Assembly (NCBI RefSeq): GCF_006345805.1
Contig: NC_043009.1
Coordinates: 22,568,001-22,632,000, forward strand
Source of the DNA: Octopus sinensis
Taxonomy: Eukaryota
Direction of reading: 5' to 3'
Length of the DNA stretch: 64,000 nucleotides
Shown here: piece by piece, positions 13,992-47,147 of the stretch
Layout of the letters: each line of letters opens with the position of its first letter
Position numbering within the stretch: the stretch's first letter is position 1
The notes under the pieces: generated by a model
Database searches by the model: none
What the model was told of the DNA's origin: nothing
The model's input: the letters and a program-made list of their open reading frames with translations, nothing else
Program-made: the position numbers and the translations under genes

Positions 13992-14051
<60 letters not shown>

Positions 14052-14399
14052 AAGTACAAAGTGAGATAGGGGTTATGAGTGTAACCCACTATAGGATATC
14101 AGTTATCCAAAATACTGCTGGTGAAGCACCCAAATGGCAAATACATAAATGCTTATAATTGCAATGCAATTAATTCATTTATTGTATTAGATGGGCAAAG
14201 GTAAAACATTTTACCTCAAATTCATAATACAAATAAGAAAATAGAGGAACAGATTCATTCCAATCAACGACTTACAGATATTACCAATTCATATTATTTA
14301 TTTAACTACATAAATAGGAACATCCAAATCCAACAAAACAAAACAATATACATCAATATGTAAGATAATAATACCATAAGAATAATATACATAAAATGA

Positions 14400-14521
14400 A
14401 TATTACAGCTGTTTCAGCCTGTAGATAAAGGTATCTCATTCTGCCTATATTAGTCAGATGTATTGAGGTAATATGCAGTTAAAAATGAGTTACTTATATA
14501 TCTCAAGGCCTCGTCAGAGAT
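14400..14521 (-). ncRNA. Type I hammerhead ribozyme motif (inverted copy, one stem I mismatch)
   Basis: Reverse complement of 15276-15397; stem I 3' strand reads ATAT instead of AGAT. Confidence 0.6.
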
Positions 14522-15112
14522 TGTAAAGTACAATTATAAAAATGCAAATATAAATATGAAACAAAATACATATATATATACATATATATAAGTATATATA
14601 TAATAATATACATACACATAAGGTTACATATAATCAAATATACTGGAGTATACCTATACATCCACATCAATGGGTACATATACGGAGTTCATTACATTAC
14701 CAAAACTATTAATATTATTATTATTATTAATAATACCAATATTAGATTATGTGCATTCTGCTATTCATATTTCATAAGCATCTGTCTATATATTATGTTA
14801 TACTATATTATATATGTGATATATAATTTATTATATTATATTGTACTATATTATATTATACTATATTTTATGTGGTATTTTCCATCTACTATGCATTGTG
14901 GATAGCAGAATGCACATAATCTAATATTGGTATTATTAATAATAATAATAATAATATTAATAGTTTTTGTAATGTAATGAACTTTATATATGTACCCATT
15001 GATGTAGATGTATATGTATACTCCAGTATATTTGATTATCTGTAACCTTATGTGTATGTATATTATTATATATAGACTTATATATATGTATATATATATA
15101 TGAATATACACT

Positions 15113-15152
<40 letters not shown>

Positions 15153-15160
15153 TATACACT

Positions 15161-15217
<57 letters not shown>

Positions 15218-15275
15218 TTGTGTATGTGTATTTTGTTTCATATTTATATTTGCATTTTTATAATTGTACTTTACA

Positions 15276-15397
15276 ATCTCTGACGAGGCCTTGAGATATA
15301 TAAGTAACTCATTTTTAACTGCATATTACCTCAATACATCTGACTAATATAGGCAGAATGAGATACCTTTATCTACAGGCTGAAACAGCTGTAAGAT
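15276..15397 (+). ncRNA. Type I hammerhead ribozyme motif with long stem II insert
   Basis: atct-CTGACGA-ggcct..(~85 nt)..aggct-GAAA-cagctg-TA-agat: stem I atct/agat, stem II ggcct/aggct (extendable agata/tatct), palindromic stem III cagctg, GUA site. Confidence 0.7.
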
Positions 15398-18384
15398 CCA
15401 TTTTATGTATATTATTCTTATGGTATTATTATCTTACATATTGATGTATATTGTTTTGTTTTGTTGGATTTGGATGTTCCTATTTATGTAGTTAATAAAT
15501 AAATAATATGAATTGGTAATATCTGTAAGTCGTTGATTGGAATGAATCTGTTCCTCCATTTTCTTATTTGTATTATATATATATGTATATATATATTTAT
15601 TTCTATATATATTTTTTGAAATCTGGTACTTAGCAGTTCAGCAAAAGAGACTGATTGAATAAGTTACGGGGATGTAAACAAACCAACTCTGGTTGTCAAG
15701 CAGTGGCAGGGGAGAGGAGACAAACAGAAATATATGCACAAATACATACATCTTTATATATATGATAGGCTTCCACACAGTTTCTGTTTACCACATTCAC
15801 TCAAAAGGCATTGGTCAGTCTGGGACAATAGTAGAAGACACTTGCTCAAGGTGCCACACAGTGGGACTGAACCTAAAATAACATGGTTGCAAAGCAAAGT
15901 TCTTAACCATGCAACTATGCCAACATCTAATATTTGAATTTCAGTATTTTTTTTTCTTTTGTTCATCAATGAAATTACCTTGCTAGAAACATTAGAAATC
16001 ATGTCTTCAACACAGCATACAAATTTATTCATATTTGCAAATTTTATTTACAGATTTGTGCTGAAGCATACCACCACAAGTTTTCCCAACATATTCTGTT
16101 TTTTCTTTTTTTCTAGTTTTATTTTATTTGTTATGCAAATATAATGAATTGAAATCAAAGAGATTAGTGGTAGTTTTCATTTACTCGCCAATGAAGAACT
16201 TTGCTGCACAAAACATTAAGATATTTATTTCTTCATCAAACAACACTCTGACATGCCTCACTTTTCACTACCTCAGCCAACACTGCACAGTTTAGAATTA
16301 ACGTGTATATGAGAGCAACACAGATGCATTTGATGTGTTTTTTTTAAATAAATCCATTCATTTTTAATTGTTACCTGATTTCATAGCATGACAGAGATAT
16401 AAAGGTGGAAAAATCCAACTAGTTAAAGGTAATAAATATGCCTATTATACCTAAATCATTTTTACTCAGCTCTTTCAAGTACAGAGTTGCTACACAGGTT
16501 AGAAGTTTGATGCAACACAAATGTAACAGCTACCTCTCGTAATCAGACATTTTTTTCAAAGCCTCACCTAACACAATTCTTCCTAGAATTCTTATTTTCA
16601 TCTTAAAGAAGAAATATAATTAATCATAATTTTTTTCTTTTTAACTTTTCAAGAAAATGACTTTTGTTTTCTGTTGTGATTTTTTTTTTGTTGCTATTTC
16701 TCATAATTAAAGTCATGTTAACTTAGCAGTGAGTTAAGTTGTTATTTAGCCCCAGGCAAGCTCTGAATGAGTAAACCTATCATCAAAGGCATTCCTTCAA
16801 TGAACATTCCATGTTTATTTCAGCCAATATAATTTAGATCCTGTATATTGGTCAGTGCTTCTGTTTCTATTAAACAAAAATAAACAAACAACAACAAAAG
16901 CAACAACAAACAAAGAGAGAATGATTTGAGAGAGGTTTCGTTGCTATTTCTAGCCTATGTTGTTGGCTCATGTTTTGTTAAATTGACAGGTTAGATACAT
17001 TTAGTGTACAGGTTCTAACCAATTTCTATACTGATAATATAAATGGTTTTCTTTTAGTTCCAACAAAGCTCCATCAATGGACTTATCATCATAATTGTCA
17101 TCTTAACAGCTACTTTCCCATGCTAGCATGGATTGGAAGAGGTTTATTGAGACAGATTTAATACAGCAGGATTCTTGTCTTGAATCCTCATCTGTTTCCA
17201 AGCAAGGTAATTGCAGAGTATCCGGAATGAACGACACTGCTTGAATGACAGTGACACTCACAACTATCATGCTTGTCAAGACAAAGAGAAACAAATACAC
17301 ACACACACACACACACACACACAAAGGCAGACACACACAGACACACATGATAGACTTCTTTCAGTTTCCATCTACCGAATCCAGGGCTTTGGTTGGCTCA
17401 GGTCTATAACAGAAAACACTTGCCCAAGATGTTGTGGAGTGGACTGAACCTGGAACCATGTAATTAGGAAGCAAATTTCCCAACCACACAGCTACACCCG
17501 ACCCAATGAATTAGTGAATGGTAGTATGTACCAGAGCAAGTTCTTTGAATTTAGAGGTACCAGTATCATCTATACAAGTGGGTTCCAAACTGTTTCAGTC
17601 ACAATTCAGTTTCATTAAAAAAACTTGGGATGATCCAAAATTACAGTAAAAGACATTGACCCAAGATGCCATGCTGTGGGATTGAACCCAAGTTCCCAAT
17701 GACTGTGTGGTAGAAATCCTTAACTATTCTGCCTCACCAGCATTCAAATCAGAAGCAAGGTGGCAACATTAATTGCTCTACCTAACTTCACTGAACAGTG
17801 ACACTAAGATTCAAACTAACTGGGAAGCCCTCTCACTCACTCTATTCTACATTCTCTTTTTCCTTCTCCCTCTCTCTCTCTCTCTCTCTCTCGCCTCTTA
17901 GAATTTACTTTGTCTTTGTAAACAGACAAAAAAAAAAAAAAAACTCCACTGGTTGCCAAGTACAACATTGATTTTAAAATATGTTGACCTGGAATATGAA
18001 GCCCAAAGTATAAAATATCAAAAGACAATAGCTATGCCCTATTGTTGAGAGAGAGAGAGAGAGATGGGGGAAAGATGGAATAAAAAATTTCATTTCTAAC
18101 ACAATGTATGTGAAAGCGTGTGTGTGTGTGTGTGTGTGTACTTATAAGGAGAGAGGTGTTGCCTCGACAGAATCAAGAGAAATGGGACCATAACTCTAAA
18201 ACTAAATACACATAGTTCAAATCTAGGCACATATTGATTTTGGAAGCTGAGGTTCTGAGATCAAACCTAGACATATCCTTTATTTGAGCTTCAATATATT
18301 TCTATTTTTAGGGGCTAGGTATCACAGAAATTTATATGGTTCTGTTTTTGTTGAAGTTACCATTATTCTTTTACTCACTTTTAG

Positions 18385-41234: not shown

Positions 41235-43046
41235 ATGGCTATGAAGCGAGCAGTTAGCTGTTCCTTCCTTCCAAATACATTCCCTCCGCAAACACACACG
41301 TTATCACCAAAAAAACACCTACTTCGCGCCGTAAAAGGCAACAGAGCTCCTCCTTCCGAAACGGAAAGCACGCGCGCCGTTCGAAAAGAGAATGCTAACC
41401 AGGACGTCGCATTCGACGTCACTCCCGATTTCCCCCCTATTCCTTCAACATGTGATGTTGTACCGAAGGGGAAGGAAAGGAAAGTTATAACAGACACAAA
41501 CACAAACAGGAACACAGAGAAAAATGTAAAAATTTCCAACGATTTTGCTTCTGCTGCGAAGCAAATTTCGGAGGAAGTAAAAATTACATTACAAGACATT
41601 AAAAAAGCAAAGGAGTTGTTGAGGAAGGATGGCAACAGCATCTTCCTCAATACTCCACAAGATGTAATTGATAACACCAACAGGTAAACAATTACATACA
41701 GAGTTTTCGATAGAAAACTGAAAAAAATGACAAACGCCACACCCCAACAGTTAGAGATAGCTCTAAAGCCCATTTGGGCCCAAAAGAGCTACGTAACCAA
41801 GGGGAAGCGTTTCGGAACCGTGGAGGTTTGCTTCCCAACAGAGGAGCAAGCAAGGGCGAACACCATTTCGCCCTTGCAAACTGAGAGTTTGTTACTCGTC
41901 CCGACCCACCTCGGGCGAAGAGTGACAAAAATAAAGATTGACCTTGCCCCTCCTGAACTAGATATGTCATGGCTGGTGGCAGCTGTCCTCTATGATATAG
42001 AGGACACTACCACCATTCTGGATGTCAGGAGAGTGAGGGAGAAAAACTGGTTGGGGATGGGAGTGCTGCTTCTTGCTCAAATTCAGCAAGAAAATATCAG
42101 CAAGGTCCCAGATTTCGTTAGTTTGCCGGACGGCACCAGGCTAAACATTGCTGTAGAGGGGCGAAAGCCAAAATGTTTCCTCTGCAGCAGCGAAAGCCAC
42201 TTAAAGAGGGACTGCCCCATTCAAAAAAAGAGAATGGAGGCTTACAGCAAGAGGCAGCAACAACAACAACAACAACAACAGAAACAACAACAACAGAAAC
42301 AACACGAAACACCAAAAGCTGCCACACCACCAACACCATCACCAGCACCAAGACGAACAACACCACCTCCAACAACAACAACCACCACCAAACCAACACC
42401 AGTACCTAGAAAGTCGACAGCAGCACCATCAACAGCAACAGGAGCAGCGGCACCACCGATACCGGCGGAACCAACAACCTTTCGTCCTGCTGCTGAAGCA
42501 GACCCCTCAACCATTCCTTTGCCGGATGAAGAGTACTTGGATTGTGCGAGCTCTGATTCCAACAAAGGAGAATGGAGCACAGTGCCTCCAAAAAAGAAAA
42601 GGAGGAGAAAACAAAAAGATATACAGGGGAAGCACGAACAAATAGTGCTTCCAAACATCAACAACAACATCAACGACAACACACATTCACAACAACAAAC
42701 AACAACACTTTCGACACCACTACTGCCACTGCCACTGCCACAGACACAAACAAACACAGACACAATTACAGCAATAAATACAAAAAACCAAGAACTGGTT
42801 GAGTATTTGAAAGACAAAACAAGCACAAATATAACAGATTTCGTTATACCAACAAAAAACACACCACCAGCACACATTCTCACAATAAAAATAAACAAAA
42901 CAATATATAATGAAATCAAACAAAATTTCCCTAACGATGTGGGATCGTTAGGGAAAAGTTTCTCTAAGAAACTATATAAAAATATTGTGGAAGAACCCGT
43001 GCAAAAGCACAAGGGAGCCACCCCTACCACCAACAACAGCAAGTAG
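41235..43046 (+). pseudogene. Tx1 ORF1 (gag-like, CCHC zinc knuckle) with one in-frame stop at 41685-87
   Basis: ORFs 41235-41687 and 41727-43046 share a frame; CFLCSSESHLKRDC knuckle, polyQ/Pro-Thr linker, PPKKKRRRK basic patch. Confidence 0.85.
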
Positions 43047-43084
43047 AGCCTTTTTTCTCCTTTTTTTTTCCTAACTTTTGAAAC

Positions 43085-46000
43085 ATGGCAAATCTTAGAA
43101 TCGGTTGCCTGAATGTGAGAGGCCTTGGGTCACCTTGGAAACAGGGTCACCTGTTAAACGACCTGAGTTTTCATGATGTGGATGTAGCAGCCATCAGTGA
43201 AACCAGGCTCTCCGACCCGCAGGAACTCGCAGCCCTTTTCGGCGGATACGAGATATTTCTATCTCCGTGTCGGCCGGGAGCGGGCGGTGGTGGTACTGCG
43301 ATGTTGTTTCGGAAGGGCCTGGACCTGAAAATAAGGACAGTCTTCTTGGATCCGGAAGGTAAGTTGGTGGTCCTCGACGTCGACAGTAGTGACGGCGGTG
43401 CTTTCAGACTGCTGGCTGCCTACGCTCCGACAGGAGCAGGGCAGTCGGATTATTTCAAACGTCTGGAAGTTTTCCTGGGAATGTCACGCACTCTAGTGCT
43501 AGTTGGGGATTGGAACGCTGTCTTAGACGAACGTTTCGATCGGGTGGGCAGGGGAGCGTCTGATAGGAGAGGGGGAGGGTGCAAGAGCCTCGCCAACCTA
43601 CTCGGCCGCTTTCAGCTGTCCAACAGGTTTCGACTAGACAACCCGAATGTGCCAATGTGGACTTGGACCAACCGCATCGGGTCGTCTAGATCGTACTTAG
43701 ATAGAGTGTTTTGTAGGCCAGCGGATAAGGACAGCGTAGGGTGTCCACAATTCCACCTAGTCGAATATACGGACCACAAATTAGTGATCTGTACGGTCGA
43801 CTTAGATAGGCTACATAGACAGGGACCCGGCTACTGGAAGCTGAACGCGTCATTAACGGCGTGCAAAGCTTACAGAGACCGGATTAGTTTACTAGTTAAG
43901 CGGGCGCTCACGGGGGCAATCATCAACAACAACTGGTGGTTTGCCCTCAAGAGAGCAATTAAAGTAGAGTCGATTAGGTATATTAAGACTCTAGCTATTG
44001 AACATAGGAAGAGAGAGTGGGATTTAGTTAAGAAACTAGACGAGGCTCTTGACACTGGCATCGCGACCGACGTGTTGGCGGCAAGGTTGGCCCTCGACCA
44101 ACATTTCGACGCCAAACACGAAGGCTGCGTTGTCAGAGCTAAGGCACGTTCGCTAAGCGGGGAGGGGACTAGAGCCACTCGATGGGCCCGCGTGGCAGAG
44201 GCGAAGTGAGGCAACAAAGCAACCATTCGGTCTTTGGTGGACCAGAACGGGCGCGAGGTTACCGAACCGAAGCAGATGTGTACGGTGCTTCAGCGGCACT
44301 TTGCTCAACTGTTTGGGACGAGCGGTGGAACGGACAACGGTGCAGACTTCGGTGTGTACCTGGACGGCCTACCGCAACTCTCGGACAGCGAGGCAGAGTG
44401 CTGCGAAGGACCGATATCTGCCTGGGAAGTACAGGAAGCGATGAAGAGTTGCACGAGAGGTAGATCACCAGGTTTGGATGGTCTGCCCTACGAGCTTTAC
44501 TTTTCAATGCCTGACTTGTTTGCGGGCCTGTTGGCAAATGTCTACTGCAACTGGCAGCAAAACGGGAGAATTCCTGCTTTTGTCTGTCGAGGGGTGGTGG
44601 CTTTGCTGAAGAAGGACCCAAACAAGGGGGACATTATAGGCAATTTCCGGCCCATCACTCTGCTCAATGCAGAGTTGAAGATTTTGGCCAAGGTGCCAGC
44701 CAAGAGATTGGCGCTTGTAGTGTACAAGCTGGTCGGCAAGACGCAGACATGCGCCGTGCTGACCAGGTCGATACACGACAACCTCCATCTCATGTGCTAC
44801 ATCATAGAGAGGGTGGGTAACGACGCTGGTGCGGGTAGGGCTTTGATCAACTTGGATCAGAGTAAAGCCTTCGATAGGGTCGACCATCGGTACCTGGCAG
44901 CTGTCCTCAAGGCAGCCGGCTTCGGTCCAGTCTTCCGCGGGTGGATAGCTGCTTTATACAGCAACATCTGGTCGGTGATACGGGTGAACGGCCACCTTTC
45001 GGAACCATTCGACATCTCGCGTTCGGTCCGCCAAGGATGCCCTCTCTCCTCCCTCTTGTACATTTTGACTCTCGAGCCATTACTGCGCAAGTTGGAGGCT
45101 TTGAGGGGTATCCCGCGCGATCTAGGAGGCGGAAACAGCGTGTCTGCTTATGCCGACAACGTCACCATGGTGGTGTCGAGCCACAGGCACATTGGCCTGA
45201 TTGGCGAGACACTAAACCAGTACGAAGCGGTGACAGGGGCAAAGATTAACGCGGAAAAGTCTGTGGGCTTGCAACTGGGCACCTGGAGAGGCAAGCCCAT
45301 GCCGTCCAACAGCGTCGTAGGGCGCTGGACAGACGGACCCGTTAAACTGCTCGGGGTCTGGTTCGGTCCGGACCTCCAGGTGGATAAGAACTGGGAAGAG
45401 GTGACGAGCAGGGTGGCACGTCTCACCCAGAAATGGGCCGAGAGGAAGCTGTCCCTGAAAGGTCGAGCAGAGGTGGTGAATGCGTACATCGCATCCGTCA
45501 TCTATTACCGCTTGACCGTCGTCCCTTGTCCCGACCGCTGGTTGGCCAAGCTGGTACGCCTGCTCTTCGACTTTTTGTGGAAGGGTCAGGTGCCACTGGT
45601 CAGGCGATCCATCTGCTGTCAACGACCGCTGAACGGAGGCCTTGGAATGCCGTGGTTGCTGTTGCGCAGACATGCGCTCAGGCTGCGGCATCTCAAGCGC
45701 TTCCTAGACGGTGAACAGGTGTGGTCGTCTTTTGTCAGACGCGATTTTCCGCAGCTTGTCTCTTTGACGGAGCTGCAGACCTGGATCAAACGTAGACCGA
45801 GAAAGGGCGCTTGGCACCTCAAGTGCCGTCAAGCCCTCTCCGCCCTCCGTCAGGTGGGCAATGCGATCGGTTACAGCTCCACTCTAGCGTTCTATAGAGG
45901 GTTAGTGGAGGAAAAATGCGACGACGTTCTCGAGGAAACTCTAGGCGTTGAAGACGACGAACTGAGCGGTCTGTTCGGGAGGACTTTCGGGCTGGGGCCG

Positions 46001-46560
46001 ATGGATAATTTCCAGAGGTCGCTCGCCTGGCAGTGCTACGAGGGGCACTGCCTGTTCGAGATAAACTCTACCGGCACGGAAGTGCCGTCAGCCGGACCTG
46101 CCCGAGGTGTTGCCAGGACGACGAAACCGTTCTGCACGCACTCGTCCAGTGCCCGAGTATTGCTGAAATATGGGTTTATGTCGAACAGCTACTGTCACGT
46201 GTAGGACGGATCCGACTATCGGCCGAATCCATAGTGAAGATTGCCCCGCCGACCTCCTTTAACAAGGAGGGCGAGGCCGTTTTCTTATGCCTAGTGGCTG
46301 TGGCGAAAGAAGTTGTGTGGTGGACTCGTTTGAAAGGGCTAAAGTCAGACACTTTCCTCTTTGGTCAAGGCCTTATCAACTTTTTCAAGTTTCACTTGAA
46401 AAGGAAGATGAGGTTAGAGAGGAAAGTGCTGTCCAATAGCAAGTTTTATGAAAGGTGGGTGAATTGTGCGAGACTGGCCAGTATAAATGGACCAGTTCTC
46501 AGGTTTCGTCTGTTATTTCAAGAAGGTAATACGAAAGGAGAAAAACGGGACTCTCTACAC
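43085..46560 (+). pseudogene. Tx1 ORF2 (APE endonuclease + RT + zinc-binding domain), inactivated
   Basis: LNVRG, SET, GDWN, YLDR, TDH, GYWKLN; SPGLDG, FRPITLLN, KAFDRV, QGCPLS, YADN (YADD mutated). In-frame TGA at 44207-09, frameshift near 46040, then CPRC..ETVLHALVQC. Confidence 0.92.
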
Positions 46561-47147
46561 CCCTTTTTTGACCAGGCTCCCGTTGGCTTTTGTAGGGTTT
46601 TTTCCACCAGGAACCTTTCGAAACGTCTCCCCCTTTTGGGAATTTTTCATTGTTGAATTTTTCAAATTGTTATAAAGATTTTTACTCGATGTTTTTAAAA
46701 AACGGACAAAACCCTTTGTAACCTTTCATCCTGTCTTGTCCCTTTATGTAATCATGCATGTCAGCCCTTGTGGCCAATAAAAAAGAATTGATTATTATTA
46801 TTATTATTACTGGTGATGTTGTTTTTGACGTTATTGTTAACCTTTACTGCCAACACCACCAGCATCACCAATCACATGAGCATCATCATCATCATCATCA
46901 GTATTATTTCTGTTAGCTGAAATCAAAGAATTTGTCTTCATTAGCTTCTAAGTTGGAAATGCAATTGGAGAAGAAGTCATCTCACCATGCCAGTTGCTAA
47001 AGCAAGCAATATTCTTAGAAGACTCTGGAAGTTCAAATGGTGTAAAGTAGCAAAACACCAGAACCAAAATCATTGAAGAACACTCTGGAAAACCAATCTT
47101 AAAAATCAAAGCAAGAGAATTGTCGATGATCTTTCAGAAGCTGATGA

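Follow-up and report, generated by a model that had tools for sequence, protein, structure and literature searches.

Within the window analysed here, a 64,000-nt stretch of the Octopus sinensis genome (NC_043009.1, positions 22,568,001 to 22,632,000 of the forward strand), a large inverted repeat is found at positions 14224-15576, which very probably represents two 5'-truncated ends of a Penelope-like element (PLE) of the Hydra clade lying head to head, each containing a predicted dimer-cutting hammerhead ribozyme, the stem II of which is drawn out into a rod of about 95 nt. The motif is not a chance occurrence, because a search of the 2.72-Gb genome with the hammerhead region returned 884 first-look candidates for the family, with 41 matches among the 40 that were scored. 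The layout of the insertion is already known from other PLEs, and the long stem II would make these hammerheads a structurally novel form of an established type of ribozyme, with putative activity.

The two hammerheads and their stem II domain

The right type I hammerhead (15276-15397, + strand), recognized from its sequence and fold, consists of a 4-bp stem I (15276-15279/15394-15397), CUGACGA (15280-15286), a 95-nt stem II (15287-15381), GAAA (15382-15385), the palindromic CAGCUG (15386-15391) and UA (15392-15393), with the predicted cut at 15393/15394. Its counterpart in the left arm (14400-14521, - strand), located through the alignment of the arms, is likewise of type I with a palindromic stem III and has its core at 14517-14511, a 95-nt stem II at 14510-14416, GAAA at 14415-14412 and a predicted cut at 14404/14403, its stem I being weakened by the loss of one pair through a G>U substitution at 14402. 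The type I core, that is CUGANGA, GAAA and UH in order around three helices, is complete in both arms, as the original prediction had held for CUGACGA, GAAA, CAGCUG and UA, and is jointly intact in 46 of the 61 full family copies; the spacing of about 95 nt that had been given for CUGACGA and GAAA proved to be 95 nt in each arm.

For comparison, a subfamily set of 20 sequences was drawn from 65 distinct matches by removal of those more than 90% alike, its members being 61-89% identical to the window copy. GAAAC, CUGA-GA, CUGU and the basal G-C pair of stem II are invariant in this set, the core having been preselected by the search pattern and the basal pair and the palindrome not. Stem III, an 8-nt self-complementary stretch with a computed duplex energy of -11.1 kcal/mol, is 97.5% paired across the set, and stem I is 76% paired, with both-sided change in two of its four pairs.

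The stem II domain (15287-15381, + strand) is predicted to fold as a single imperfect rod of 32 pairs (-23.0 kcal/mol, z -3.8) that closes on itself, as had been proposed, the basal G-C being present in 20/20 subfamily sequences and the helix being 86% paired. A z below -2 is obtained for the insert in 14 of these 20 sequences and in 11 of 13 recurrent family variants, with the sense strand favoured in 10 of the 13, and the stem II of the intact young L222 family is very stable (z -6.9). With the predicted structure of the window copy laid on the 20-sequence alignment, 77% of the cells are paired versus 34-38% when the structure is slid, and 47 cells with both-sided change are observed versus 25.8 after shuffling (0/500 shuffles), such change affecting 17 of 40 pairs, which is modest against the shuffle (15/500). 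Covariation thus lends moderate support to the modelled rod, under controls that ignore relatedness or favour the source structure. The covariation that had been looked for is found at this level in stem II and in the two stem I pairs, and the wobble bias of a sense strand is missing from it (see below).

It had also been suggested that a stem II of this length would escape motif searches. Rfam indeed misses it; up to an E value of 10, neither the 95-nt motif nor a 16-nt motif at 36635 gave a hammerhead match, and since the 16-nt hammerhead is missed as well the failure does not come from stem length alone. The other hammerheads of the window, originally put at 10-16 nt, are reduced by the scans to just two further cores, one with 16 nt at 36635 and one with 12 nt at 35195, the latter being weak. 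The former belongs to a type I hammerhead with a palindromic stem III (36629-36675, + strand), which is located in a stub of about 280 bp between TA runs.

The parent element and its insertion layout

When family copies were followed upstream, pieces of an open reading frame (ORF) with reverse transcriptase (RT) and GIY-YIG endonuclease parts were found in L137, L138 and L224 on the same strand as the family hammerhead and the pseudo-long terminal repeat (pLTR), both of which lie downstream of this PLE ORF; the Penelope origin suggested for the palindrome is borne out by this linkage to an ORF of the Hydra type. A related family shares 81% identity with this one over 168 aa of the RT; in this sister family, an intact 960-aa ORF is positioned between two direct pLTRs (L221, L222), stem II is 85 nt long and a homologue of the tail described below directly precedes the ORF, and in L222 the predicted cut falls inside the pLTR, with about 510 nt separating it from the ATG of the next ORF. 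Direct pLTRs are also present in L091. According to PMC8557442, the Hydra clade is diagnosed by RW(K/R), DKT, a CxCX5C linker, a C-terminal GIY-YIG domain and a preference for (TA)n, and the corresponding motifs are RIRWR, SDKT and CNCRNKNKC in L222, and RIRWK, ADKT and CKCRIKSKC in L091. The L222-type protein is collinear by eye with Hydra-1_Obim, its RT being called from the YRDD and DKT motifs, and by these motifs and this collinearity with the published proteins the family qualifies as a Hydra-clade PLE. Tandem pLTRs in full-length copies, an inverted 5'-truncated copy and a one-sided tail, as in endonuclease-bearing (EN+) PLEs, are all present. A non-LTR retrozyme was also considered as the source, and was ruled out by the ORF-bearing parent and by the variable truncation points of the copies.

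Long Asn-rich insertions, which are described for rotifer Penelope elements (PMC3846280), separate the RT from the endonuclease in the Hydra ORFs of L222 (3800-4700) and L091 (3540-4480). Intronless ORFs of up to 997 aa and of unassigned kind were encountered as well, near-identical in L136 (1-1584 and 7760-9499) and L147 (1-1385 and 5947-8937), with the PLE of the present family inserted between them.

In the window, the arms of the palindrome occupy 14224-14767 and 14898-15576 in opposite orientation, and alignment of the reverse complement of 14224-14776 with 14890-15576 gives 538 matches, 15 mismatches and 134 gap columns. Four of the 15 mismatches sit at the junction, leaving 11 true substitutions (about 2%) besides small indels, and the gap columns mostly correspond to a TA-rich microsatellite expansion of about 128 nt (15100-15227), present in the right arm only. 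Both arms had been described as about 540 bp long; their inverted arrangement stands, but the right one measures 679 bp. Similarly, the AT-rich spacer of about 130 bp is present at 14768-14897 (+ strand), but it is the element's own sequence rather than foreign DNA, matching the family copies L003, L008 and L025 in sense orientation and representing the part by which the right copy extends farther 5' than the left, so that the two copies meet at one inversion junction, at about 14766-14770. The right 5'-truncated pLTR copy accordingly runs from 14768 to 15576 (+ strand) with this part included and, as judged from the alignment and the family copies, stops at the fixed pLTR end of the family. 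The left inverted 5'-truncated pLTR copy (14224-14767, - strand) is continued by a 172-nt one-sided tail (14052-14223, - strand), which is a continuation of its pLTR and has a 73% match to the 5' untranslated region just upstream of the ORF in the full-length tandem elements L221 and L222. The insertion is flanked on the left by a (TA)n microsatellite (13996-14048), the likely target site, at which no target site duplication is discernible, and on the right by a TA-rich stretch (15577-15610). The locus, consisting of truncated copies, contains no ORF.

Tail and pLTR end (14052-14290, - strand) give stable predicted hairpins (z -3.0 and -2.2) beside the two fixed 3' termini of family copies, and these are candidate RT start signals. 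Elsewhere in the window, 41688-46656 (+ strand) holds a near-complete non-LTR retrotransposon, in which, by its motifs, a gag-like ORF with a zinc knuckle is followed by endonuclease and RT.

An upstream inverted partner is present in 17 of 29 copies selected by the tail and in 17 of 29 picked by a pLTR word (one of 30 loci in the latter set was dropped, having no central match), the two sets overlapping and including both arms of some insertions. Within the pLTR-selected set 20/29 finish at the pLTR end and 7/29 at the tail end, and (TA)n is found at both ends of the insertion in the window and at nearly all listed copy ends. Because 17 of the 29 tail-bearing copies have an inverted partner, the layout is an ordinary one, and the inverted pair with its tail is, judging by these copies, a routine insertion product of the family. 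Consistent with that, an inverted pLTR with a one-sided tail is described for EN+ PLEs (PMC8557442, PMC3846280), the tail having been tied to two internal RT start sites (PMC11167929).

Long stem II in the genome and in known hammerheads

Scored against a reversed-pattern control, core matches in the genome number 13,035 (control 589) for a stem II of 8-30 nt, 28,143 (699) for 31-59 nt, 6,750 (432) for 60-90 nt and 2,677 (449) for 91-120 nt, that is 37,570 versus 1,580 for 31-120 nt in total, with only C/T allowed at position 7 in the two longest classes and with any one site possibly entering two of the four classes. At least two of three hammerhead features (a stem I of at least 3 bp, a stem II closure of at least 4 and a palindromic stem III) were present in 22/25, 19/30 and 7/30 among the first matches listed, the last figure being for 91-120 nt. 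The count for this class is inflated, 7 of its 30 first-listed matches belonging to one repeat family that fails these tests. An abundant repeat at the centre of L154, L175, L176 and L178-L180, which carries the core pattern at 92-93 nt without stems I and II, is such a source of false positives. In the 31-59-nt class a paired stem I is seen in 11 of 15 families, against 10% when halves are swapped, and in the other classes in 4/13 and 7/19, each family being represented by its best member; over all of these classes the swapped value is 4-10%.

All of the ORF-linked hammerheads sampled have a stem II of 51-103 nt. In an RT tree of 23 rows from this genome only (L149 being dropped as too short, and the row L225_893 being a mislabelled second ORF fragment), the families with 85-103 nt form one group beside a family with 58 nt. 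The families with short stems (14-26 nt) showed no ORF in the stretches examined save for one RT fragment in L267, so that short and long stems cannot be polarized on this tree. The first rows of the 8-30-nt list are dominated by 16-nt motifs akin to the one at 36635, with no ORF between their inverted pairs. Tandem repeats of about 400-450 bp, each with a 43-45-nt stem II, form retrozyme-like arrays at L270 (900-2160), L258 and G000:C1 (4297863-4299124 and 4621805-4622984). Taken by these pattern matches, the long stem II is part of a genome-wide range from 8 to more than 100 nt, which includes young intact elements, and is not a rare variant. The notion of a hammerhead with an inserted stem II domain is in this way supported, but the window copy is one step in that range and holds no claim to rarity.

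The closest known systems are the Hydra-clade elements of PMC8557442, among them Hydra-1_Obim, with which the family shares RW(K/R), DKT, CxCX5C, the C-terminal GIY-YIG and (TA)n targets, as well as a 3' hammerhead with a palindromic stem III, an inverted 5'-truncated copy and a one-sided tail. It differs from them in loop 2, which in File S2 of that work has 3-10 nt on stems of 3-7 bp (8 nt in Hydra-1_Obim) as compared with 95 nt here, in its tail (172 nt versus the published 30-40 nt) and in its size, the published elements being under 3 kb, whereas here an ORF of about 960 aa with Asn-rich inserts is accompanied by more than 2 kb of non-coding 3' sequence. The minimal hammerheads in the pLTRs of metazoan PLEs (PMC4209133) are similarly of type I, with a palindromic helix III that is predicted to need dimers, a short helix I, a larger-than-usual helix II and frequent opposite-strand pairs 100-700 bp apart; their "larger" helix II, however, amounts to 7-8 bp, in contrast to about 30 predicted pairs in the octopus rod, and their basal pair differs from that of the octopus, which is G-U or A-U followed by G-C. 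A "long helix II" in PMC13725137 is one of 6 bp. As in EN+ PLE insertions generally (PMC3846280, PMC11167929), a head-to-head copy, a tail at one end and two fixed 3' ends correspond to two RT starts, and nothing essential sets the octopus insertion apart from what these works describe, the starts here being deduced from the copy ends. File S2 of PMC8557442 also gives an enlarged loop 2 of 29-34 nt for spike-moss PLE-X hammerheads and flags them as departing from the canonical structure, but these come from just two elements in a different clade, have a third of the length seen here and do not form a genome-wide class. No PLE hammerhead with a stem II of 50-100 nt was found in the literature searched, which did not extend to the 2017 papers of Lunse et al. 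and Arkhipova et al., where variants with a long loop may be found; passages from PMC3088659, PMC7229834, PMC6155905 and bioRxiv 2026.07.22.740005 show no long stem II.

Proposed mechanism, alternatives and significance

In the model proposed here, a single insertion into a TA repeat would likely have made both arms, with reverse transcription being primed on both strands of the target from two fixed internal starts, one at the pLTR end and one at the tail end. Such two-start priming would give outward-pointing arms with a tail on one side, the starts themselves being read from the copy ends. Where active elements lie in tandem, their joint transcript would be processed when two palindromic halves of stem III pair, probably with the help of the element's protein. 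PLE hammerheads with a palindromic stem III are reported to cut weakly and as dimers (PMC4209133, PMC6765202), an Anolis PLE hammerhead requires the protein of its element for cleavage (PMC11167929), and minimal PLE hammerheads are described without a loop I-loop II contact (PMC6155905). The hammerheads appear independent of such contacts, and stem II may be free to lengthen provided that it closes and keeps CUGANGA beside GAAA; the 95-nt rod would represent a further elongation, peculiar to the lineage, of a stem that was long before (51-60 nt).

At the palindrome itself, the RNA of the whole repeat has a predicted fold of -884 kcal/mol, in which pairing with the left arm engages 121 of the right hammerhead's 122 nt, in line with the proposal that double-stranded RNA could compete with self-cleavage. 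Because read-through RNA is predicted to fold arm to arm, both hammerheads are likely silent in it, and this RNA is a likely substrate for editing. Clusters of T>C differences occur at 10 places in X1 and 9 in X6 (15463-15574) in low-depth contigs of putative RNA runs that have no matched DNA and are not assignable to the palindrome locus, and provide a weak hint of the kind expected from adenosine-to-inosine editing of antisense family RNA.

It has to be noted that a number of results count against the reading of these motifs as dimer-cutting Hydra-clade hammerheads. G-U and A-C cells are equal in number (48 versus 45), without a wobble bias specific to the sense strand, and in just 6 of the 20 subfamily sequences does the sense strand give the more stable fold; both results speak against selection on the sense RNA, although 10 of the 13 recurrent variants do favour sense. 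RNAalifold on the unguided 20-sequence alignment recovered the basal stem alone, variation of the core within the family (2.5%) is barely below that of the 5' flank (3.2%), and stem I is short, at just 2-4 bp in the lineage as a whole and 2-3 bp in intact L222. The 5' ends of copies are not clustered at the cut site, 0/29 and 2/29 lying within 10 nt of it, and the 85-103-nt clade of the RT tree is supported by only 86/92. As for the protein, Pfam gave one sub-threshold GIY-YIG match and nothing for five ORFs, and a PDB search of the ORFs gave nothing meaningful, which leaves motifs and the published alignment as the basis for assigning the RT.

Several of these points would also be accommodated if the hammerheads were vestigial, the rod blocking or replacing catalysis and the core surviving through the youth of the copies. 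The position of the 5' ends, the weak stem I and the strand-symmetric pairing statistics fit this proposal, as does the report that mutants of the Anolis hammerhead left insertion in vitro unaffected (PMC11167929); it is nonetheless unlikely, given the invariance of GAAAC, CUGA-GA, CUGU and the basal G-C in 20 sequences and the covariation of stem I between families. Somewhat better placed, if still doubtful, is the opposite view that the long stem II exceeds a tolerated extension and is a functional domain, be it for binding of RT or endonuclease, as a switch gating cleavage or as a site of template switching. The rod is kept in every sampled ORF-linked lineage of the octopus Hydra type (51-103 nt) and in the most abundant families, it reaches the z of -6.9 in the young intact L222 family, and the protein dependence in Anolis would suit such a role; furthermore, 11 of the 29 pLTR-selected copies end within stem II. 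Against this, just 3/29 of the tail-selected copies end there, stem II making up about a fifth of the scored span, sequence and length of the insert vary widely among families, some of which are abundant at 14-26 nt, and TA slippage in it is tolerated. A more specific form of the same idea, in which octopus-type Hydra elements would carry active hammerheads with a 50-105-nt rod docking or gating their own RT/endonuclease, as the dominant hammerhead form of this genome (more than 30,000 matches) and outside the published descriptors, is more tentative again.

Far less probable is that the insert is a retained spliceosomal intron of 75 nt, removal of which would leave a compact hammerhead. A GT at 15304, a branch-point-like CTGACTAAT, a pyrimidine tract and an AG at 15378 do resemble the signals of one, and PLE pLTRs can carry introns, an intron end overlapping the hammerhead in D. 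virilis (PMC4209133). The AG, however, is present in 8/20 and GT and AG together in just 7/20 subfamily sequences, the signals are absent from other long-stem families and the rod fold of the insert is paired from one end to the other; four putative RNA runs contained no spliced joint, and one of their contigs crosses the motif unspliced (contigs drop rare variants), and the intron is disfavoured on these grounds. That the palindrome is an assembly artefact of fold-back chimeric reads is the least credible of all. Its junction was not bridged by any public contig among the short-read DNA contigs of four runs, a negative that carries no information, but the arms differ by the 11 substitutions, several indels and the 128-nt expansion, the tail is one-sided, the right copy is 130 nt longer and the same layout recurs in 17/29 other copies, and the artefact was rejected on this asymmetry and recurrence.

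With the head-to-head Hydra-clade insertion and its dimer-cutting hammerheads as the preferred reading, the palindrome locus itself is a dead and routine insertion. What it points to is a set of about 50,000 matches to the hammerhead core within the genome of a single animal, approximately three quarters of which have a stem II of more than 30 nt. The core search of PMC8557442 used spacers of 7-17 nt and at most 35-50 nt, and as the long stems II found here lie beyond these, hammerhead censuses of invertebrate genomes may be large undercounts. The sister families, with stems of 55, 58, 85 and 100 nt and with closely related, partly intact ORFs, constitute a natural series for the role of the PLE hammerhead and its dependence on protein, and the frequent inverted pairs are a source of many long double-stranded RNA hairpins, which the host appears to edit.

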